From: a virus
Length of the DNA: 64,000 nt
Strand: one strand, 5' to 3'
Virus record (IMG/VR): IMGVR_UViG_3300028780_000001
Below, in pieces: positions 276-57,388 of this stretch; position 1 is the first letter of the stretch, and the number at the start of each line of letters is the position of its first letter. The notes beneath the pieces are model-generated. The model had not been told where the DNA came from. It saw only the letters and a list, made by a program, of their open reading frames with translations, and searched no databases. Position numbers and translations under genes: made by a program.

Positions 276-326
276 AATTCCTTCGAGAACGGTCGAAATT
301 TTAACCAGTATAACGAAGGACGAAAC

Positions 327-1894: not shown

Positions 1895-1970
1895 AATTGT
1901 CGACGCGTTTCGATTGATGTAGTATCGGGTCTCGTCGACGTTGTTCGACTTTTATAGAAAGGAACAGAAA
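1871..1970 (+). promoter_or_regulatory. early promoter-leader cassette (variant copy)
   Basis: Palindrome CTAGGTCGACCTAG 1871-1884 + T-run; -35 TTGTCG 1897-1902, 17-nt spacer, -10 TAGTAT 1920-1925; AGAAAGGAACAGAAA 1956-1970 then ATG 1971. Confidence 0.55.
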
Positions 1971-3009: not shown

Positions 3010-3389
3010 TGCAACGCGCCTTTACGCTAGATGGCTGGGGTAATGGCCCGCTCTTCGCACCTGTCGTGAAGCAAAGACCGCTCGCACGCCCGAAAGGTCT
3101 TCAGGGTACGGTTAGAAGGCGTCAGGAGAGGGGGCGTACGCCTCGCTGGGCCGATCGGAAGGCAATGGCGGCAATCTACCGTCAAGCGCGCCTGTTGACC
3201 CGTCTAACGGGCGAATTATGGGTCGTTGACCATATCGTTCCACTGTTCGGAAAGTACAACGGCGCCCATATCGTGAACGGCTTGCATTGGGAAGGGAACA
3301 TGCGGGTCGTTCATTGGCGTGAAAACGCACTCAAGGGGAATTTTGAATGGCCCGATATGCCGGTTAAACAGTTAGAGTTTTTACTCTAA
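3009..3389 (+). CDS. HNH endonuclease
   Basis: VDHIVPL...NGLHWEGNMRVVHWRENALKGN (His-Asn-His core). Confidence 0.8.
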   Translation: MQRAFTLDGWGNGPLFAPVVKQRPLARPKGLQGTVRRRQERGRTPRWADRKAMAAIYRQARLLTRLTGELWVVDHIVPLFGKYNGAHIVNGLHWEGNMRVVHWRENALKGNFEWPDMPVKQLEFLL

Positions 3390-3480
3390 TTTGGGCGATT
3401 GACGTCGAGAAAGGTCGAGAATACTATTCGTCTAACGGTTCGCAACGTGCGTTCCGATCCACAGAAAGGAATAGAAAGAA
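3372..3480 (+). promoter_or_regulatory. early promoter-leader cassette
   Basis: TTAGAG-N6-CTCTAA 3372-3389 (covers HNH stop); -35 TTGACG 3399-3404; TCGA at 3405/3415; -10 TACTAT 3422-3427; AGAAAGGAATAGAAA 3463-3477. Confidence 0.65.
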
Positions 3481-4149
3481 ATGAAAAAGATCGCTTTCGC
3501 CGTTGCAGTCGCCTTCGCTTCGATCAATGCCCACGCAGACGACTGGATGCCGCGCATTCAGGTCGGTTCCGGCTATCAGTTCTCTAAGGACATGGGCGAT
3601 GGAACCTGGATTCAGCAAGGCGCATTCAACAATCACGAGCAGACAAACGGCGCGGCGTTATCGATTGGACTCACGGGTCGTATCTGGACTAGCGGTCCAT
3701 GGTCGGTCGACTATCACCTTGACTATGTGTATTACGGCCAGCAGTCGGCCAGTGTCGACGGCGTTCCCGACAACCAGTACAACGCGCAAACCCATCGCAT
3801 TGTCGGATATCAGGGTGAACGCCTGAGCCCGTTTAACGGTCAAGGCCACGTTCAAGGTATTCCGCTCACGCTCGATATCGGCTACACGTACAACGGATGG
3901 CGCGTATCGGCTGAAGGCGGCGCTTGGGAGTACTGGAATACGTGGCACGAGTCGCTGTATGATCTGTCGAACCAATGGGTCGACCTTTCTCACGTCACCA
4001 AGCCGCAGACTGGATTCGTCGTTGGCGCTCGCGTCGAGCATGGCCCGCTGTCGCTGTCGTACCGGTACTACCAAGTCAAAGAACAGTGGAATCCGCAACC
4101 GGGACTTGTGACAGGTACTCAAATGCTCATGCTACAGTACAAGTTCTAA
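3481..4149 (+). CDS. outer-membrane beta-barrel protein with signal peptide
   Basis: MKKIAFAVAVAFASINAHA signal peptide, alternating aromatic/Gly strands, C-terminal ...LQYKF. Confidence 0.65.
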   Translation: MKKIAFAVAVAFASINAHADDWMPRIQVGSGYQFSKDMGDGTWIQQGAFNNHEQTNGAALSIGLTGRIWTSGPWSVDYHLDYVYYGQQSASVDGVPDNQYNAQTHRIVGYQGERLSPFNGQGHVQGIPLTLDIGYTYNGWRVSAEGGAWEYWNTWHESLYDLSNQWVDLSHVTKPQTGFVVGARVEHGPLSLSYRYYQVKEQWNPQPGLVTGTQMLMLQYKF

Positions 4150-4170: not shown

Positions 4171-4380
4171 ATGCCAGAAAGAAAACTTTTGTCGATCTTT
4201 GTCGAGTGGCGCGATGAAAAGGGCGATCGCGATTCGGTCACGTACTACGCCGAAACGCTTGGGGATTCACGCGCCAGGCTTCGTGCTGCGCAACGGGTCG
4301 AGATTTGTCGATCGTCTCAGTTCGTGATCACCGCGTATCGTTTCGAACATAGCGACGGTTCGGTAACCAACGCTATTTAG
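4171..4380 (+). CDS. hypothetical protein
   Basis: ATG ORF; stop TAG lies inside cassette inverted repeat. Confidence 0.5.
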   Translation: MPERKLLSIFVEWRDEKGDRDSVTYYAETLGDSRARLRAAQRVEICRSSQFVITAYRFEHSDGSVTNAI

Positions 4381-4480
4381 AGTCTTTCCTCTAATTTTCA
4401 GGTTCCGTTCGTCGAGATTGTTCGATAAGATTCTTTCACGGTCGACGAACGGCCGGAACCTAGAAAGGAATAGAAAGATC
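4377..4480 (+). promoter_or_regulatory. early promoter-leader cassette
   Basis: TTAGAG 4377-4382/CTCTAA 4389-4394; TCGA at 4412/4422/4442; -10 TAAGAT 4426-4431; AGAAAGGAATAGAAA 4462-4476. Confidence 0.6.
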
Positions 4481-4732
4481 ATGGACAAGATTCGGATTAC
4501 GCCGCTCGACACGAAAAATCTTGACGAAATTACCTTGGTCGATCCACTAATTACCGCGTTTCGCAACGCGATGCGCTTCGGAAACTCCACGGTTATCGCG
4601 ATGATCAAGGGTTCTCCGTACATTTTCTTCGTCGAAAAATCTTCTCTTGGGCTCGACAAGTTTTACGCCCGACTGCTGAATGAGAACGGCGAAATCGTTG
4701 CAATCTGCGACTTCGACAGTTTCGATATGTAA
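4481..4732 (+). CDS. hypothetical protein
   Basis: ATG right after cassette leader. Confidence 0.6.
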   Translation: MDKIRITPLDTKNLDEITLVDPLITAFRNAMRFGNSTVIAMIKGSPYIFFVEKSSLGLDKFYARLLNENGEIVAICDFDSFDM

Positions 4733-5779: not shown

Positions 5780-6003
5780 AGTCCGATCTTAAAGAAGGCG
5801 ACACACCGCCGGAAGACGTTGGCGAGATTTACGCCGACATGCACCTTCAGTTCGAGGCGCGGTATCCGACGGCGTCGCACCGCAAGATCGCGACAATGGT
5901 CGCCGTTCACTATATCGAAGAGTCGTTGCGCGTTACGCGCGAACGTGACTTGCTTCAGCTTGCGTTCGATAACCTGAAGGAGGCGGCGAAGTCGGTCGAT
6001 TAG
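5776..6003 (+). CDS. hypothetical protein
   Basis: ATGA overlap with upstream stop; stop TAG inside cassette repeat. Confidence 0.5.
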   Translation: MKSDLKEGDTPPEDVGEIYADMHLQFEARYPTASHRKIATMVAVHYIEESLRVTRERDLLQLAFDNLKEAAKSVD

Positions 6004-6089
6004 AGTGTTTCCTCTATTGCGCCGGTCGACGCTTGTCGATAGTATTCGTTCACGGTCGCGTGACCGGCGCAACGCAGAAAGGAACAGAA
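6000..6089 (+). promoter_or_regulatory. early promoter-leader cassette (short form)
   Basis: TTAGAG 6000-6005/CTCTAT 6012-6017; -35 TTGCGC 6017-6022; TCGA 6026/6036; -10 TAGTAT 6040-6045; AGAAAGGAACAGAA 6076-6089. Confidence 0.6.
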
Positions 6090-6908: not shown

Positions 6909-7274
6909 GTGGCAAAGGACCGTTCAGACTATCTCTTTACGCGCAAGACCATTCGAGAGAGTATCCCCCTCAGAAGTGGCCTTGAGGCCCGCGAGATAGC
7001 GGCTGTGAGCGGTTACTCGCTGATTTCTGTACGCAGGGTCATTGCAGAACTAAAAGCCGCTGGTGACGTCTTCATCATTAGCTGGAAGGTCGAGCGAGAC
7101 GAGGAAGGATTTCCAACAGGCCAGCCGCGAGCACTTTATGCGCGTGGTGCGAAACGACCGGATGCACCGCGACCGGCGCCGATACCTAAGCCGCTTGTTT
7201 ACAAGCGCTATCGCGGGCGACGTGATCGCAAGCGCATTCACTTACGTTTATTTGGGGATGTCAATGAGTCTTGA
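6909..7274 (+). CDS. winged-helix-like DNA-binding protein
   Basis: REIAAVSGYSLISVRRVIAELKAAGDV helix-turn-helix-like segment; basic tail. Confidence 0.45.
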   Translation: MAKDRSDYLFTRKTIRESIPLRSGLEAREIAAVSGYSLISVRRVIAELKAAGDVFIISWKVERDEEGFPTGQPRALYARGAKRPDAPRPAPIPKPLVYKRYRGRRDRKRIHLRLFGDVNES

Positions 7275-8013
7275 AGAATTGATGAATAGCATGGCCGGAA
7301 ATCTGTTGTTCCGCTCGAACCGGTTCAAGGGAACGGTCATTGCGCTGTGCAATCTGACGACGAACTTCGTCGAGCCGTGGATTGTTGGCGGATACCTCGT
7401 GATCATGGTCGACCCGCAGCACGAGCGCACGTACTTTGACGGCTTCGCGGTGTATCGCATCAAGTCGACGATTCTCGAAGCGCTTCCCTTCCTTCGTCGC
7501 GCCATGATGCAAACGAAAGTCGTTTTCGTCGCTGGCTTTCCGCCTTGCACCGATATGGCGGTGAGCGGGGCTCGCTGGTTCGAGCACAAGCGCAAGCTTG
7601 ACTCGATGTTTCAGGCGAAGGCGGTCGCGGTTGCCGAACAGTGTCGAATGGTTGGCGAGCTATCCGGCGCACCGTACCTTGTCGAGCAACCTGTAAGCGT
7701 GCTATCGCGTGTTTTTGGTAAGCCGCAGCATAGCTTTCATCCATGGCAATACACAGCCTACTGCGACGAGGACAATTACACGAAGCGTACGAACCTATGG
7801 ACGGGCAACGGCTTCGTCATGCCTGGTCCGAGTCGCTTCCCTGATACGCCAGCGCCCGATGACCGCATTCATAAAGCGCCGCCGGGAGAAGATCGAGCGA
7901 ACTTCCGCAGCGCAACGCCAAAGGGCTTCGCGCGAGCGGTCTATTGCCACAATGCACCGCATATTGTCGAAATGCGTCGACTGGAAATGGAAGCTTACCC
8001 GGACTCCCTGTAA
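7258..8013 (+). CDS. C5-cytosine-methyltransferase-fold protein (motif I degenerate)
   Basis: GFPPCTDMAVSG (PC motif), VEQPVS (ENV-like), TNLWTGNGF; Gly-loop position reads LCNLTTNF. Confidence 0.55.
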   Translation: MSMSLEELMNSMAGNLLFRSNRFKGTVIALCNLTTNFVEPWIVGGYLVIMVDPQHERTYFDGFAVYRIKSTILEALPFLRRAMMQTKVVFVAGFPPCTDMAVSGARWFEHKRKLDSMFQAKAVAVAEQCRMVGELSGAPYLVEQPVSVLSRVFGKPQHSFHPWQYTAYCDEDNYTKRTNLWTGNGFVMPGPSRFPDTPAPDDRIHKAPPGEDRANFRSATPKGFARAVYCHNAPHIVEMRRLEMEAYPDSL

Positions 8014-10742: not shown

Positions 10743-11056
10743 ACCTTGATAACGTTTTGGTCGTATCGTTCGAAACGCTCGTCGAGTCTGTACGGCATAT
10801 CTCTATGGACCCGGAGAAGATCAGGATTCTGATTCTTATATCGAAGACAGATAAGCCTCACTACGTCACAAATTGGGACGGAAAGGTTTTGAAAGTTAAC
10901 CCGCCTGTCAGGATGACATGTCCCTTAGACTCTGTTGAGTTTCCATGCAATAACAAGATCGCCACCGAGTTCGATCCGTTGTCGGCGTTGTCGGCGTGCT
11001 TTCGTTGCCGCGCTGTCGTTTGTGCCGTCGACAAAGGTCGAATCTTTTCGGATTAG
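10739..11056 (+). CDS. hypothetical protein
   Basis: ATGA overlap; stop TAG inside cassette repeat. Confidence 0.55.
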   Translation: MNLDNVLVVSFETLVESVRHISMDPEKIRILILISKTDKPHYVTNWDGKVLKVNPPVRMTCPLDSVEFPCNNKIATEFDPLSALSACFRCRAVVCAVDKGRIFSD

Positions 11057-11115
11057 AGTGTTTCCTCTAGGCATGTTAGCGATACACTAGACGCCTAAAC
11101 CAGAAAGGAATCAGA
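11053..11115 (+). promoter_or_regulatory. truncated cassette (repeat + leader, no TCGA boxes)
   Basis: TTAGAG 11053-11058/CTCTAG 11065-11070; TACACT 11083-11088; AGAAAGGAATCAGA before ATG 11116. Confidence 0.45.
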
Positions 11116-13039: not shown

Positions 13040-13193
13040 CCGATCCCGTCACGGAAGATACGGAGCCGTACCGCTCCCGCGATTTCTTTACATGCGGTTT
13101 ATGCGGCGGCTCTGGCTGGGTGCCTCGCGACCCTGACATCGGAACCGATCAGGAATGTTTCGTTTGCGACGGGAAGGGAGAAGTTACAGATTA
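13035..13193 (+). CDS. DnaJ-type CxxCxGxG zinc-finger miniprotein (52 aa, below cutoff)
   Basis: CGLCGGSG and CFVCDGKG read by hand; ATGA overlap; stop TAG inside cassette repeat. Confidence 0.5.
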
Positions 13194-13289
13194 GAGGCTT
13201 CACTCTAATTTAGTTAGTGACAAGCGTCGACCGCATTCGATATGATTCGTTTGCGGTCGACGTGATCGCGATACCAGAAAGAGATAGAA
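13190..13289 (+). promoter_or_regulatory. early promoter-leader cassette
   Basis: TTAGAG 13190-13195/CTCTAA 13202-13207; -35 TGACAA 13217-13222; TCGA 13226/13236/13256; -10 TATGAT 13240-13245; AGAAAGAGATAGAA before ATG 13290. Confidence 0.65.
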
Positions 13290-13532
13290 ATGTCCGCACT
13301 TTCCGAAATCAACAGCAAGCGCTTCAATCGTGCTTCGCGTTTGTCCTTCAAGTTGATCGATCAGCAAGCCTCGAAGGCTATCGATCCGCGCGTAACGCGC
13401 CGGTTGGCTCGCATCGTTCTTTCCGCGATGCGTAACGGAATTCTCAAAGACGGTTATAAGCCGTCCAACGGTCTGAAGCGTGTCGCTCGCTACGGCCACA
13501 AGCGCAGGGCGCAACCCAAGGTTAATCCGTGA
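13290..13532 (+). CDS. basic small protein
   Basis: ATG after leader; Arg/Lys-rich. Confidence 0.55.
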   Translation: MSALSEINSKRFNRASRLSFKLIDQQASKAIDPRVTRRLARIVLSAMRNGILKDGYKPSNGLKRVARYGHKRRAQPKVNP

Positions 13533-14657: not shown

Positions 14658-14851
14658 ACCATCCGTTAGAAGACCTAAGCGTCCATCTGTAAAAGGCCTA
14701 CGTCGATATCGCCGAGGCGTTCAATGCGACGTTTCCGCCGATCGGCGATGCTCATGTAATATCGAAGGTGCGGTCGCTCATGCAGGAGGCTTCAGACAAG
14801 CTCGAACATGCTAAGGGCCTGGTTACGAGTGAGATATGCCGATCGCGTTAG
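14654..14851 (+). pseudogene. ORF interrupted by in-frame TAA (14690-14692)
   Basis: TTGA overlap start; protein-like reading LNHPLEDLSVHL*KAYVDIAEAFNATFPPIGDAHVISKVRSLMQEASDKLEHAKGL...; stop TAG in cassette repeat. Confidence 0.25.
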
Positions 14852-14950
14852 AGCCTTTCCTCTAATTCTCCGCTAGACGCATGTCGACACTTTTCGATAT
14901 TATTCGCTTGCGGTCGACGAAGACCGGGCCTAGAAAGGAACAGAAAGATC
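14848..14950 (+). promoter_or_regulatory. early promoter-leader cassette
   Basis: TTAGAG 14848-14853/CTCTAA 14860-14865; TCGA 14884/14894/14914; -10 TATTAT 14898-14903; AGAAAGGAACAGAAA 14932-14946. Confidence 0.65.
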
Positions 14951-15229
14951 ATGGCGACCATCCAAATCCGCGCGCAAGACCTGAAGATTGGCGACAGGCT
15001 GGTTTTCTCCGCACACAAGACCGTCGAGCTAACCGACGTCGTCAAGGCGCCCACTTCCGGCCGTGTGTACGTCTCCTGGATGGAATCGAACGAGACGCGT
15101 ACCGGCATGATCGAGCACGATTACCACTTCGATTCGTACCTGTCGTTCGCAGCGATTGAAGTCGTCGAGGGCTTGCGCGAGATTGACGCCGACGGCTTCG
15201 CGACGTATCACCTTCCGTTCAAGCTGTAA
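14951..15229 (+). CDS. hypothetical protein
   Basis: ATG after leader. Confidence 0.6.
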   Translation: MATIQIRAQDLKIGDRLVFSAHKTVELTDVVKAPTSGRVYVSWMESNETRTGMIEHDYHFDSYLSFAAIEVVEGLREIDADGFATYHLPFKL

Positions 15230-16537: not shown

Positions 16538-16744
16538 AATCATCGACATGCATATTCTTCGAATCCTTTTCGCGCTTGTGTCGCTCCCGTGCGTGGGAAT
16601 GGCTTGGCGCCAACCGCTGATCGATCGACAAAAGTCGACGCGTCGCAATACCCGGCCGGGTCAACTTGATTATGGCTAGGTGATCGCGGTTCGATCGTCA
16701 CGCACGACGGTTGACCGCCGACGACAATCTGACGCCGATAGAAG

Positions 16745-16799
16745 AATCGCCCGCGCTGGACGTAGACCGTTAATCTACTGGCGCGGGCGATTTGCTTTT
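16745..16799 (+). terminator. intrinsic terminator
   Basis: AATCGCCCGCGC 16745-16756 pairs GCGCGGGCGATT 16781-16792, then TGCTTTT. Confidence 0.6.
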
Positions 16800-16905
16800 A
16801 GAGGGATCGCTCTAATTTTTCTGTTTGCGACGTCGAGAAACGTCGATATGATTCGGTCATGGGTTGCAGCACGGAGCCGCGACCGGATAGAAAGGAATAG
16901 AAATC
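16798..16905 (+). promoter_or_regulatory. early promoter-leader cassette
   Basis: TTAGAG 16798-16803/CTCTAA 16810-16815; -35 TTTGCG 16824-16829; TCGA 16833/16843; -10 TATGAT 16847-16852; AGAAAGGAATAGAAA 16889-16903. Confidence 0.65.
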
Positions 16906-17130
16906 ATGTCACAAGCCCAATACCTCGTTGCAGATAAAGCGGTAGAGGCGTATGACGCTTTCGTGTTCACTTCGGTTGGGCGCGAGTTCAATCAGGGCCG
17001 TGCCGACGTTCTGGCTTGGGTTGCTGCGGACGAATGTAAGAAAGCTGCGCGCGACAAGGCGCTGAACCATATGACTCAAATGTATTATCACGAGCAGGCG
17101 AAAAACTTCGTCGCGATCATTGCGGATTAA
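16906..17130 (+). CDS. hypothetical protein
   Basis: ATG after leader. Confidence 0.6.
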   Translation: MSQAQYLVADKAVEAYDAFVFTSVGREFNQGRADVLAWVAADECKKAARDKALNHMTQMYYHEQAKNFVAIIAD

Positions 17131-18837: not shown

Positions 18838-18871
18838 GGCCGCGAGGATCGTCGAGATTCGATAGGATTCG

Positions 18872-18898
18872 ATTATACCGACATTGGGCGCTTGTCAA
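18872..18898 (-). promoter_or_regulatory. sigma70-consensus hexamers, 15-nt spacer
   Basis: Minus strand TTGACA (18898-18893) and TATAAT (18877-18872) upstream of ATG 18837. Confidence 0.45.
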
Positions 18899-19133
18899 GC
18901 TAAAAAGTTCGATACGGCTATGCAGCGGTAGAAAACTGACGATTGCATTACTGCAAAACAATATAGCCTTTCAGTTTGCCGCAAGTGTTTGATTTGATAG
19001 CAAATTACGTTCCTTACACAGTTGACATAATGAATTCTATCGATCTTTCAGTGTGCAGGCGTATTGAAAGAATATGACAAGTGTCGCTTGTCACTTTACG
19101 GTCTAGTTGGGATATCCAGCACTCTTGACTCTC

Positions 19134-21191: not shown

Positions 21192-22193
21192 CTACGCTCC
21201 GATTCTTTCAGACAGTAATCCTGTCATTTTCAATGTTTGTCGACCGTTCTCGAATGTCTTAGAGATTTCACGAAGCAAATCTCGACCGTGAATTTCTTCG
21301 ATTCCTATATCACTTCCCGTTAAGTACTTACCCTCGTTCATTACAACGGTGACGCCGGAAGTACTTATTACCGATTTACTATTCGGAGATTCGAGCCACC
21401 CCAAAAACACGTTACGGGTGAAAACTTCAGTCATTCCGCTGTCGATAAGATGCGGCCCATCGAAGTCGATTTCGTAACGGTCGGATTTATATAAACGCTT
21501 GATTCTCCGCTCCACGTCGGCGCATAGTCGACCATCTTCGAAATGAACAAGCGATCGAAGCGGCATAGATAATCCTTCGATCGCACCGAATTGAGAGGCT
21601 CTATTTGCCGGTTCGAAGTTAGTAATTCCAATCTTGAAATTTCCAGGACGAATAATCCCACCTTCACTCAGGAATTCACGAGAGTACAGGAACCCTGGAA
21701 TGTCTGGATTGAACCCTCCCGTACCGCGCTCCATATGGACGCATATCTCGTCAAGCCACCTATTTCTCCACGCAGCGTCGTACGCACTCATTGACCCCTT
21801 CTTAAATTCGTTCCGAGTCCTACACCCCTTAGCTTCCAACCTGCACGTTTCTAATGTCCATGTCGTACGGACCTTTTCCATATGAGCGCATATCTCGTCA
21901 AGCCAACCATTATTCCGCGCGGCTTGGTATATACCACTTGACCCCTTCTGAAATTCGTACCGCGTCCGATACCCCTTAGCTTCTGACTTGCACCTTTCGA
22001 AGGTCCACGCCGTACGGACCTTTTCCATATGAGCGCAGATTTCATCAATCCACCTATTTCGAAAAGCGGCTTGGTATGTACCACCTGACCCCTTCTGAAA
22101 TTCGTACCGCGTCCGATACTTCGCCGCTTCTGACTTGCACCTTTCGAAGGTCCATTTTGCCGGGAGACCCATCCCCTCAAATCCTCGCGTCAA
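21192..22193 (-). CDS. T5orf172/GIY-YIG-like homing-endonuclease-like protein with 3 N-terminal repeats
   Basis: C-terminal GFLYSREF...FKIGITNFEPANRASQF; three 49-aa WTFERCKSEA...ICAHMEKVRT repeats. Confidence 0.6.
   Translation of the reverse strand: MTRGFEGMGLPAKWTFERCKSEAAKYRTRYEFQKGSGGTYQAAFRNRWIDEICAHMEKVRTAWTFERCKSEAKGYRTRYEFQKGSSGIYQAARNNGWLDEICAHMEKVRTTWTLETCRLEAKGCRTRNEFKKGSMSAYDAAWRNRWLDEICVHMERGTGGFNPDIPGFLYSREFLSEGGIIRPGNFKIGITNFEPANRASQFGAIEGLSMPLRSLVHFEDGRLCADVERRIKRLYKSDRYEIDFDGPHLIDSGMTEVFTRNVFLGWLESPNSKSVISTSGVTVVMNEGKYLTGSDIGIEEIHGRDLLREISKTFENGRQTLKMTGLLSERIGA
21714..22154 (-). repeat. 3 x 147-bp in-frame tandem repeat
   Basis: Units 22154-22008, 22007-21861, 21860-21714; long identical nucleotide runs between units 1 and 2. 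Confidence 0.8.
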
Positions 22194-23756: not shown

Positions 23757-23847
23757 TTGAAATCTCGACGGTTCTCGACTACTATCCATATGCCCGGTGT
23801 GCGCCGGGTCCGCTTGTTGCGGTGAACACCAAAAGAAAGGCTTAGAA
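23757..23847 (+). promoter_or_regulatory. cassette-type promoter + leader for helicase operon
   Basis: -35 TTGAAA 23757-23762, 17-nt spacer with TCGA 23765/23775, -10 TACTAT 23780-23785; AGAAAGGCTTAGAAA then ATG 23848. Confidence 0.6.
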
Positions 23848-25125: not shown

Positions 25126-25347
25126 ATGAAAGTGTCGCTAAAATTTCTCAAGGTAAACCCGGAAACGGCAAACATTACCGCTGGCATCGCATTTATTTGT
25201 GCTGTGTTTGCGTTCTCGTTCGGCTGCTGGTACCTGGTGCTATTCAAGCTGTTGCCGTACCTGATTCATCACCTGTCGTTTAGCTGCGCGGCTAGAGTAA
25301 ATCCTCTAGTTACTTTCTCGACGATTGTCGATAAGCTTCGTCAATAG
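25126..25347 (+). CDS. membrane protein
   Basis: AAGGA RBS; two hydrophobic helices; 3' end reads through the next cassette. Confidence 0.45.
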   Translation: MKVSLKFLKVNPETANITAGIAFICAVFAFSFGCWYLVLFKLLPYLIHHLSFSCAARVNPLVTFSTIVDKLRQ

Positions 25348-26426: not shown

Positions 26427-26837
26427 ATGATCGACGAGCAAAAGGCGCGCAAGCTCGAAGCGCTCGAAGAAATTCGACGCATGCGTGAAGAGAACAGAAA
26501 GAAGGATGCCGAAGAACGTCGATCAAACCTGATCAAGAAAGCCAAAGAACGCGACCAGGCCATTCGTGACCGTCACGACCGAAACATAGAAGGTAACCGC
26601 CGTCGACGCGGAGCGATTGGCGTATTCTGGACTAGCAGGGGTATTACCAAGCTTCACCCTTACTCGACGCGGGCCATGATCGTGCGATGGATGCGCGAGC
26701 ACCTTGCCGAAGGGCAATCGATCGATATCGACGAGCTTCACAAGAAGTGCTCGCCCTTCCTGTACGGCGCCAAGATTCGACAGCACCTGGTTCGCCTCGA
26801 AGAGTTCGGCCATATCGAGTACGTATTTAAAACGTAA
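26427..26837 (+). CDS. coiled-coil + winged-helix-like protein
   Basis: Charged N-terminal helix; C-terminal IRQHLVRLEEFGHIEY wing-like segment. Confidence 0.5.
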   Translation: MIDEQKARKLEALEEIRRMREENRKKDAEERRSNLIKKAKERDQAIRDRHDRNIEGNRRRRGAIGVFWTSRGITKLHPYSTRAMIVRWMREHLAEGQSIDIDELHKKCSPFLYGAKIRQHLVRLEEFGHIEYVFKT

Positions 26838-26846
26838 GGAATCCTT

Positions 26847-27188
26847 ATGAGAATCAAGACTCTCACGATTGCAGAAGCCAAGGTCGCTCGTGAGTCGTGG
26901 CGCCGTACGTTCGCCCTGTTTCCTGTCAGGGTTGCCGATGGGGAATGGCGCTGGCTTGAGTTCGTCGAGCGTAGAGAACTGTCGACGGTATCGAGATATG
27001 TAAGAACCTTTACGGTTCAGCATCGCGCGCCCGGCGCTGTCGATTTTTACCCGCCCTACCCTTGGCTCGTCGGAGACGGTCGTAACCGTATTTGCAATCA
27101 GGATTTTGAAGTTGAACAGCGCCGCTCCAACCGAGACCGACCTGAATTCCCCAAATCAGAAATCATAAAGGATCATCGTGCAAGCTAA
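26847..27188 (+). CDS. hypothetical protein
   Basis: AAGGAATCC RBS then ATG. Confidence 0.5.
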   Translation: MRIKTLTIAEAKVARESWRRTFALFPVRVADGEWRWLEFVERRELSTVSRYVRTFTVQHRAPGAVDFYPPYPWLVGDGRNRICNQDFEVEQRRSNRDRPEFPKSEIIKDHRAS

Positions 27189-27811: not shown

Positions 27812-28033
27812 ATGTTCTCACTACTAATCACAACCCTTAACGCAACGACGACCAACGGCAATCGCAAGTCTCCGCCGCGCCTGATCCCGGTAGGCTCGCA
27901 CACCACATCGTTTATGTCGGAAGAGTTACGAGAAGCAGCGATTACTGCGATCGACAAGTACAACGCCGATCGCTACAGCGAGGCTGTTGCGCATATCGTC
28001 GGCCATATCTCGTACATGTACGTGCGCCTGTAA
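27812..28033 (+). CDS. hypothetical protein
   Basis: ATG ORF after AT-rich gap. Confidence 0.4.
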   Translation: MFSLLITTLNATTTNGNRKSPPRLIPVGSHTTSFMSEELREAAITAIDKYNADRYSEAVAHIVGHISYMYVRL

Positions 28034-29137: not shown

Positions 29138-29144
29138 TCGATCC

Positions 29145-29318
29145 TTGTCGAATTAGCTCGAAATGTTGTACACTGGCTGCTCCTCGTCTCGTAAAGACAC
29201 TCAGGAGGAACAGCCAGAAAGACCGCTCAAGACAAATCCGCCCGGCCGTTTCTGGTTCGGCTCTGGTCTTCAGCCGTAACCCGTCGCACCGCACGAACAT
29301 AGAAAGAGGATAGAAAGA
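29145..29318 (+). promoter_or_regulatory. promoter plus long structured leader of the replication operon
   Basis: TTGTCG 29145-29150, TACACT 29169-29174; interrupted stem 29175-29184/29203-29215; AGAAAGAGGATAGAAAGA then ATG 29319. Confidence 0.5.
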
Positions 29319-35919: not shown

Positions 35920-35994
35920 GTCGCGTTCATCTAGCGGTTAGGATCACAGGGTTTCATCCTGTTAACACGAGTTCGAATCTCGTACGCGACTCCA
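35920..35994 (+). tRNA. tRNA-Glu (anticodon UUC), CCA encoded
   Basis: Hand-folded cloverleaf: acceptor GTCGCGT/ACGCGAC, D stem ATCT/GGAT, anticodon stem ACAGG/CCTGT, loop GTTTCAT, T arm ACGAG-TTCGAAT-CTCGT. Confidence 0.7.
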
Positions 35995-57314: not shown

Positions 57315-57347
57315 TGCATAAACTCCTGTGTGATTCGGATTGTACCG

Positions 57348-57388
57348 GTCGAAGGGGTTCGACTAGCGCCGAAAACCCCTTCTTCGAC
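57348..57388 (-). promoter_or_regulatory. intercistronic stem-loop between sheath and tube genes
   Basis: GTCGAAGGGGTT 57348-57359 pairs AACCCCTT(CT)TCGAC 57374-57388; no U-tract. Confidence 0.55.

Follow-up and report, generated by a model that had tools for sequence, protein, structure and literature searches.

In the 64,000-nucleotide stretch of phage DNA analysed here (the window), the tetramer TCGA recurs in pairs of the form TCGA-N6-TCGA, in which the two boxes are spaced by exactly 10 bp. The pair is strongly enriched, is selected at the level of the DNA, is conserved at orthologous positions, is restricted to one clade of phages, and occupies a defined position on predicted promoters. 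We propose, with moderate confidence, that the motif is an operator for a symmetric DNA-binding protein which would occlude RNA polymerase and would most likely be a repressor.

Results

Genome context and related loci

The window covers most of a metagenome-assembled myovirus genome of ~73 kb, whose contig family recurs in dozens of samples from ENA, JGI and Logan. Genes identified in the window include those for a tail sheath, a PolIII-alpha-type DNA polymerase, a VapE/RepB-type primase and a Dda-like helicase. Among cultured phages, the PB1-like Pbunaviruses of Pseudomonas are the closest (polymerase amino-acid identity 56-57%), and the phage has the appearance of a virulent PB1-like myovirus. 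DNA searches of the phage collection for both near and distant relatives gave no nucleotide-level match to the window. The left ~17 kb form a plus-strand array of small ORFs, the replication genes are located at 17-38 kb, and structural genes on the minus strand fill the remainder. A single tRNA-Glu (anticodon TTC, 35920-35994) lies between an SNF2-type helicase gene and Pam3 gp32-34-like genes. The minus-strand ORF 21192-22172 contains three tandem repeats of ~45 residues (WTFERCKSEA..YRTRYEFQKGS..W.DEICAHMEK); it has a weak endonuclease PHROG match and is poorly conserved in relatives.

Loci of relatives (~20 kb each) were fetched via homologs of the Dda helicase and of a methyltransferase-like protein encoded in the window. 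The motif-bearing loci compared were L008, L009, L010, L014 and L015, L014 being the early region of the L009 genome and L015 a fourth motif-bearing genome. A scan of IMG/VR with the cassette pattern described below returned three chance matches of the wrong GC content, and a search of IMG/VR with the primase found nothing.

Enrichment of TCGA pairs at a single spacing

TCGA is the commonest 4-mer in the window (804 copies), and this frequency alone would yield about 10 pairs at any spacing. The spacing histogram is flat (4-13 pairs) except for one spike of 54 pairs at exactly 10 bp; dinucleotide shuffles gave 4.2 ± 1.9 copies of TCGA-N6-TCGA (maximum 10). The spacing-10 pairs are distributed as 25, 23 and 6 over the early, middle and late thirds of the window, while the codon-phase-matched spacings 7, 13, 16 and 19 gave about two pairs per third (~5.5 over the window). 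Pairs with one mismatch were enriched about twofold in all three thirds, which amounts to ~75 such pairs genome-wide above the control spacings. Perfect and near-perfect sites together occur roughly once per 500 bp, an unusual density for a classical operator set. When all 4-mer pairs with spacings of 4-19 were scanned blindly, TCGA/TCGA was far in the lead and the runners-up were sub-words of TCGA-N6-TCGA or the conserved ribosome-binding site; no other bipartite 4-mer signal of this size was found in the window. The two-box layout described in the initial annotation, which listed eight of the 54 pairs, is therefore real. All the positions that it gave do contain the boxes, but the triplet 13226/13236/13256 was off by one (13227/13237/13257), and the degenerate box TCGC at 6056 was correctly read.

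Outside the boxes the motif carries almost no information: a weak G precedes each box, and positions 2 and 5 of the N6 show only a weak preference for A or T. The motif is its own reverse complement and its flanks carry no orientation signal. Because TCGA itself is its own reverse complement, a dyad symmetry is indistinguishable from a direct repeat. Formation of a hairpin by the two boxes was also considered as the cause of the pair, and rejected: only TCGA/TCGA was enriched and pairs of other self-complementary 4-mers were not, while the partners with one mismatch (GCGA, TCGC) would disrupt the base pairing.

Coding and intergenic copies

The initial annotation had presented the boxes as a feature of the promoter cassettes. 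The motif is not cassette-specific, since 36 of the 54 copies are within ORFs. Synonymous-codon shuffles left only 6.6 pairs inside ORFs (maximum 13; 300 trials) and reduced the total number of TCGA from 804 to 575. A rough bookkeeping suggests that perfect and near-perfect pairs account for most of the surplus of TCGA over the codon shuffles. A protein-coding cause of the pairs was ruled out by these shuffles together with the frame-matched spacings. Seventeen of the 54 pairs are intergenic, in ~10% of the window, where about one would be expected; in L009, pairs outside called genes make up 18 of 28. About 12 of the 54 perfect sites are located at predicted promoters, and the 36 ORF copies have no -10 hexamer beside them. 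Pairs did not cluster near gene starts, except for those of the promoter class (-100 to -50). Helical phasing between neighbouring pairs, as for looping, was not significant (resultant 0.18-0.25, n=33).

The pair in hairpin-promoter cassettes

Eight copies of a composite hairpin-promoter cassette are present in the window. A hairpin TTAGAG-N5/6-CTCTA(A) is followed by 9-19 variable bases, usually with a recognisable -35 (the hexamers include GTGACA, TTGACG and TAGACA/TAGACG), then by TCGA-N6-TCGA, a TAnnAT -10, the conserved ATTCGyTy and a short stem-loop; the 3′ part is the ribosome-binding site AGAAAGGAAyAGAA and the ATG (Table 1). When the cassettes were chosen by the hairpin and the ribosome-binding site alone, in the window and three related genomes, a perfect pair was found in all 24. 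It lies in the -35/-10 spacer in 21 cassettes, usually abutting the -10, and beside the hairpin on its upstream side in the three others, which form one orthologous set. In the orthologs of the 11028 cassette, in L014 (12270) and L015 (12702), the pair abuts the hairpin. Among 18 spacer-type cassettes the boxes are invariant and the -10 reads TA..AT in all, and no position of the N6 reaches 70% identity. A -10-like hexamer begins exactly at the end of a pair 18 times, versus 2.8 expected. The cassette spacers are 16-18 nt long, the boxes lie at -26 to -13, and a conserved purine 7 nt past the -10 is the predicted start site. Most cassettes have 4-5 of 6 matches to the -35. All promoters and start sites given here are predictions.

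As the initial annotation stated, the two boxes are placed within the spacer with the second at the -10: the offset is 0 at 4412, 6026, 13227, 14884, 16833 and 25318, and a TAnnnT -10 nearly abuts the remaining listed copies (offset 1 at 23765 and 3 at 3405). Sigma70-like hexamers are matched at 10 of 12 positions at 13217-13246, the best such site in the first 20 kb by a generic scan, and at 9 of 12 positions at each of 3399, 14874, 16825 and 23757; taken overall, the generic scan was not enriched over shuffles.

The hairpin elements are found at 3372-3388, 4377-4393, 6000-6016, 11053-11069, 13191-13207, 14848-14864, 16798-16814 and 25293-25308, often with ATTTT after the element. The loop reads TGTTTC, or its exact reverse complement GAAACA in L014 and L015, so both orientations of this ~18-bp element are in use. 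It may act as a weak terminator, or else as a second palindrome for protein binding.

Table 1. Coordinates of the TCGA pairs and of the associated elements in the window.
Feature	Position	Strand	Basis
Cassette hairpin TTAGAG-N6-CTCTAA, upstream of promoter	13191-13208	.	
Sigma70-like promoter GTGACA-18-TATGAT, 10/12; -10 (13241-13246) abuts second box	13217-13246	+	scan
TCGA pair TCGACCGCATTCGA in cassette promoter spacer	13227-13240	.	shuffle-tested count; position check
Predicted 5′-terminal UTR stem-loop GCGGTC-GACGT-GATCGC	13253-13269	+	fold, -8.6 kcal/mol
Conserved ribosome-binding site AGAAAGAGATAGAA and ATG of ORF 13290-13532	13276-13292	+	
Pair 4 nt past -10-like hexamer TAGAAT, over predicted start site	283-296	.	
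Pair 2 nt past -10 TAGAAT (promoter TTGCTA-18-TAGAAT), over predicted start	1900-1913	.	
Second pair near 1900, just before ribosome-binding site	1935-1948		
Pair in spacer of cassette promoter TTGACG-17-TACTAT; -10 three nt past pair	3405-3418	.	
Pair abutting -10 TAAGAT (cassette)	4412-4425	.	
Pair abutting -10 TAGTAT (cassette)	6026-6039	.	
Pair 12 nt upstream of hairpin; sole window cassette without spacer pair	11028-11041	.	
Pair abutting -10 TATTAT (cassette)	14884-14897	.	
Pair abutting -10 TATGAT (cassette)	16833-16846	.	
Pair overlapping last -10 base of minus-strand promoter TTGACA-N15-TATAAT	18859-18872	.	
Pair in spacer of Dda-helicase promoter TTGAAA-17-TACTAT	23765-23778	.	
Pair abutting -10-like TAAGCT (cassette)	25318-25331	.	
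Three TCGA boxes in 10-bp steps, covering -35 of TACACT promoter	29138-29161	.	

This anatomy bears on the sign of the regulation. A phage factor bound at the pair might recruit or re-programme the host RNA polymerase, as the T4 factor acting at MotA boxes does; in that case the cassettes would be promoters of the middle class, activated jointly. We consider such an activator or sigma-appropriation site unlikely. The 4-N6-4 architecture is that of the CII sites of lambda and P22, TTGC-N6-TTGC, which straddle the -35 of promoters lacking a good -35 and activate them (PMC2629481); here too the repeats are embedded in the promoter, in a 10-bp register and on one face of the helix. In addition, the register to the -10 is strictly fixed in 18 cassettes, certain cassettes have a poor -35 (for instance 4412, TTCCGT), and the Pbunavirus 14-1 has a second, factor-dependent class of promoters (PMC10914365). 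However, the boxes do not flank a weak -35 as CII repeats do: on spacers of 17-18 bp they occupy the stretch between the -35 and the -10 and overlap the extended -10 position. Further copies are found over the start site, and no -10 adjoins the 36 copies in ORFs. With usable -35 hexamers in most cassettes, there is no need for an activator. To our knowledge, no known activator sits between the -35 and the -10 on spacers of 17-18 bp. The MerR-type activators need spacers of 19-20 bp, and those of the cassettes, at 16-18 nt, are shorter.

Pairs at other promoters

Other pairs are located on the -10, the -35 or the start site of promoters outside the cassettes (Table 1). The pair at 18859 and its promoter (18872-18905, minus strand) are kept in L008 and L009; this promoter has perfect TTGACA and TATAAT hexamers, with a 15-nt spacer that is unusually short for sigma70. 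The triple box at 29138-29161 is also conserved in L008 and L009, and in the L010 ortholog of the 29148 promoter (L010-10351) the pair is displaced by 7 nt and adjoins the -10. In the Dda-helicase promoter, the pair at 23765 is kept in L008, L009 and L010 with a different N6. Upstream of the cassette pair at 4412, two further pairs are found within ORF 4171-4380, at 4298 (114 bp away) and 4192 (220 bp away), and the trio is conserved in L014.

Several neighbouring features were noted. Directly after the TACACT promoter, positions 29173-29219 form a conserved structured RNA with a 17-pair stem (CTGGCTG...CAGCCAG), an inner GTCT/AGAC hairpin and three compensatory pairs among four genomes; the next ORF follows after ~100 nt, and the structure may represent a leader or a small RNA. 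The ORF-free region 16540-16800 is conserved with relatives (L009 near 3224, L014 near 19291) and holds one TCGA pair and a tRNA-like segment, GGTTCGATC, for which ARAGORN and Rfam gave no call. Upstream of the tail-sheath gene, at 57320-57362, a pair lies inside a longer palindrome (GAAGGGGTT...AACCCCTTC) resembling a terminator stem, with a TACAAT -10-like hexamer 4 nt later. Since it is within a terminator-like palindrome, this late-region pair may be coincidental to the hairpin.

Conservation and clade restriction

Spacing-10 pairs numbered 17 in L008 (helicase identity 82%), 28 in L009 (72%), 11 in L010 (70%), 32 in L014 and 22 in L015, where 2.5-4 would be expected. More distant loci are motif-free: L012 (helicase identity 57%) has three such pairs, L013 (59%) two and Pseudomonas phage SN none, and the spacing-10 spike is absent from Burkholderia phage Bm1. 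The motif is thus confined to one clade with a Dda-helicase identity of at least 70%. In the motif-free loci the density of TCGA is half as high and its count equals the codon-shuffle expectation; only the motif-bearing genomes exceed that expectation. No hairpin-promoter cassettes were found in L012 and L013.

At orthologous positions, compared at ~80% flank identity, intergenic paired boxes were intact in 56 of 63 cases (89%) versus 19 of 42 (45%) for unpaired TCGA (Fisher p = 2e-6). This indicates that the promoter sites are under strong positional constraint, beyond neutral conservation as is expected of operators. For coding boxes the values were 32 of 46 (70%) when paired and 256 of 426 (60%) when unpaired (p = 0.27). 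The number of intragenic sites thus appears to be maintained while their positions turn over, and the function of the coding pairs is less certain because their positions are barely better kept than those of single TCGA.

The helicase promoter of L012 is a plain, box-free TTGACT/TATAAT, which argues that the boxes of its ortholog are an overlay rather than a part of polymerase recognition. It also bears on the possibility that the boxes are an intrinsic promoter element, the second TCGA making an extended -10-like contact and the first a contact in the spacer, with no separate binder. The second box does abut the cassette -10 and brings a G to -14, as in TGn promoters. The cassettes read C(-15) G(-14) A(-13), however, so that only the G fits the extended -10 and the C at -15 departs from the TGn consensus; ~85% of the pairs in the six loci have no adjacent -10, and pairs are also found past the -10, over the -35 and upstream of the hairpin. 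We know of no polymerase contact that reads -26 to -23. This explanation is improbable, and the flexible position of the pair relative to the core promoter fits better with an autonomous binder than with a polymerase contact.

The same comparisons weigh on the view that the boxes have no dedicated function and are merely the shared sequence of repeated cassettes on a TCGA-rich background, kept alike by recombination. TCGA is indeed the commonest 4-mer of the window, the genes right behind the cassettes are the least conserved, and the cassettes resemble the composite stem-loop-promoter repeats of T4-like phages (PMC4122927). Nevertheless, the N6 and the flanks vary within the cassettes where the boxes are constant, the 36 ORF copies have no cassette remnants nearby, the excess survives both synonymous-codon shuffling and the frame-matched spacing controls, and promoters outside the cassettes keep the pair across four genomes. 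We regard this view as the least probable of all.

As regards the genes next to the cassettes, tblastn found no homolog of the ORFs directly after them (4481-4732, 13290-13532, 14951-15229 and 16906-17130) in the early region of either L014 or L015, where neighbouring genes are 50-90% identical. This recalls the modular exchange of genes by the PeSL repeats of T4-like phages (see Discussion). The 222-aa product of ORF 3481-4149, behind another cassette, carries a signal peptide at its N terminus, and its beta-rich sequence resembles that of outer-membrane proteins; identity in relatives is only ~30%, and the gene may be of the moron type.

The third box lies in a predicted 5′-UTR stem-loop

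A third TCGA, 20 bp past the second, had been proposed as a further operator box, and among the listed cassettes it is present in exactly the three that were named. At 13257-13260 it spans the top of the 5′ arm and the loop of a predicted stem-loop (Table 1), contributing the end of the arm and the first loop bases, with the predicted start near 13253. Other cassettes have equivalent stem-loops of different sequence (CGGTCG/CGGCCG, CGGTC/GACCG, GCGGTC/GATCGC, GGTTGC..GCGACC), the arms of which co-vary; in 18 of 25 promoters the folding energy is -8 kcal/mol or lower, and the z-scores average -1.8. The third box itself is TCGA in only 7 of 21 cassettes and reads TCGC, TTGC, TCAC or TAGA in the others. 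An operator box at this place is not supported, since the sequence is not conserved and belongs to the co-varying stem-loop. It is best read as part of the 5′-UTR hairpin, which by analogy with other 5′ stem-loops is plausibly a stabiliser; the third box may occasionally have an auxiliary role.

Candidate binders and a methyltransferase-like gene

Among the 68 early and middle ORFs, no match to a DNA-binding family (HTH or other) was obtained with Pfam, PHROGs or NCBIfam, PDB sequence searches gave no match, and no ORF was found to be tied to the motif. Of the three binders suggested by the initial annotation, two are disfavoured. The basic protein 13290-13532 (80 aa) has no homolog in L014 and L015, which retain the cassettes. 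The ORF 26427-26837 has a conserved C-terminal winged-helix-like domain, which is also conserved, inside a longer protein, in the motif-free L012 and L013. The third, the winged-helix-like ORF 6909-7274, is syntenic in the motif-bearing L014 and L015, but it has no family match, its database homologs are near-identical ones only, and its single-sequence AlphaFold model is unreliable (pLDDT 46). Two further candidates are ORFs 26847-27188 and 27812-28033, which were found in L008-L010 but not in L012 and L013.

The ORF 6909-7274 overlaps the start of the gene 7264-8013, which encodes a small protein of 249 aa that resembles C5-cytosine DNA methyltransferases and has the catalytic motif GFPPCTD. 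The protein matches PHROG 757 and nothing in Pfam or NCBIfam. Its AlphaFold model (pLDDT 91) resembles most closely, by Foldseek, the catalytic domains of DNMT3A, DNMT3B and DNMT1, with TM-scores of 0.4-0.5. Of the motif-bearing genomes, four could be checked, and all carry the gene. As TCGA is a classical 4-bp palindromic methylation target, it could be the target of this enzyme. The paired sites would be co-methylated by a dimer, or read by a methyl-sensitive protein in the way that SeqA reads phased GATC pairs, and the activity of a promoter would differ between injected, methylated DNA and newly replicated DNA. Several data are at odds with such a signal: the TM-scores are modest, the family is very widespread (2423 matches), the loci L017 and L018, whose homologs are 64-66% identical, show no excess of pairs, and methylation alone leaves the selection for an exact 10-bp spacing unaccounted for. 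We consider it less likely than an activator, though somewhat more likely than an intrinsic promoter element.

Discussion

The initial annotation interpreted the boxes as an operator-like layout across the polymerase site, and our analysis supports this in part: they are a selected DNA element on the polymerase footprint of predicted promoters, and, judged from sequence alone, a repressor is more likely than an activator. Our favoured explanation is that TCGA-N6-TCGA would be recognised by a sequence-specific DNA-binding protein of two-fold symmetry (a dimer or tetramer) that is specific to the clade and is probably encoded by the phage, less probably by the host. Each TCGA would be a half-site, one helical turn from its partner. 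At the early cassettes and the replication-gene promoters the site would lie on the polymerase footprint, at -26 to -13, at the start site or over the -35, and the bound protein would keep the sigma70 RNA polymerase out or trap it, so that these promoters would be turned down or shut off in concert. The 36 ORF copies and the ~75 one-mismatch pairs may serve as auxiliary, cooperative or roadblock sites; alternatively, they may concentrate the protein on the phage DNA.

Several known systems resemble this organisation. The operators of lambda (OR/OL), P22 (Arc/Mnt) and P1 (C1) are likewise short symmetric sites with half-sites one turn apart, lie on the -35, -10 or start of many co-regulated promoters and occur in multiple copies per genome, the C1 operators being scattered over that of P1. 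In contrast to those systems, the present phage looks virulent, no repressor gene was recognised in it, the site has only 8 specified bases, and two thirds of the perfect copies are within ORFs. The gp71 stoperators of the Cluster A mycobacteriophage L5 are found at early promoters and also at over 20 other genomic locations, where they are proposed to stop initiation and elongation, respectively; they are asymmetric 13-mers, bound by a monomer, locked in orientation and located in short intergenic gaps of temperate phages (PMC9283540). The many extra sites besides promoters (54 perfect sites here) are common to both systems. However, the present motif is palindromic and does not follow an orientation, its copies away from promoters are mostly intragenic, and there is no sign of an immunity repressor.

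The cassettes also recall the PeSLs of T4-like phages, which are composite terminator/promoter cassettes (PMC2839356, PMC4122927) and whose repeats are proposed to be kept alike by recombination (PMC4122927). In both, a repeated stem-loop and an early promoter lie between small ORFs and the adjoining genes vary between relatives. The resemblance is functional only: the definition of a PeSL comprises just the promoter and the stem-loop, neither invariant spacer boxes nor intragenic copies throughout the genome have been described for PeSLs, and the present phage is not T4-like. In the Pbunavirus 14-1, sigma70-like promoters and a class with a CTGGG core have been described, and nothing like the TCGA pair (PMC10914365). 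In the literature searched, no mention of TCGA-N6-TCGA or its variants was found. An operator-type motif that defines a regulon would as such be of a known phage kind, and what is unusual is the high density of intragenic sites.

There is a broader, though unlikely, possibility, to which we give about the same weight as to an activator. The phased pairs might have evolved in this clade of virulent-type myoviruses as a genome-wide address, with ~50 perfect and ~75 near-perfect sites per genome and the highest density in the early and replication regions. This address would be read by a global phage regulator of a new kind. Such a regulator could be a repressor that occludes promoters and also acts intragenically, as a symmetric, intragenic counterpart of the stoperator system. 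It could also be a reader of TCGA methylation deposited by the DNMT3-like small C5-methyltransferase of the phage, which would distinguish injected from replicated DNA and thereby time the early-to-late switch.

The motif offers a simple 14-bp bait for fishing the regulator, and the cassettes would be portable, co-regulated promoters. The strong intragenic excess provides a clear example of selection acting on DNA sites within phage ORFs. Cultured PB1-like relatives are widely used therapy phages, and we know of no explanation yet for their early-to-middle switch. If the TCGA pairs are indeed an operator set, they would define a whole regulon together with a mechanism for its shut-off or timing in an uncultivated PB1-like branch.
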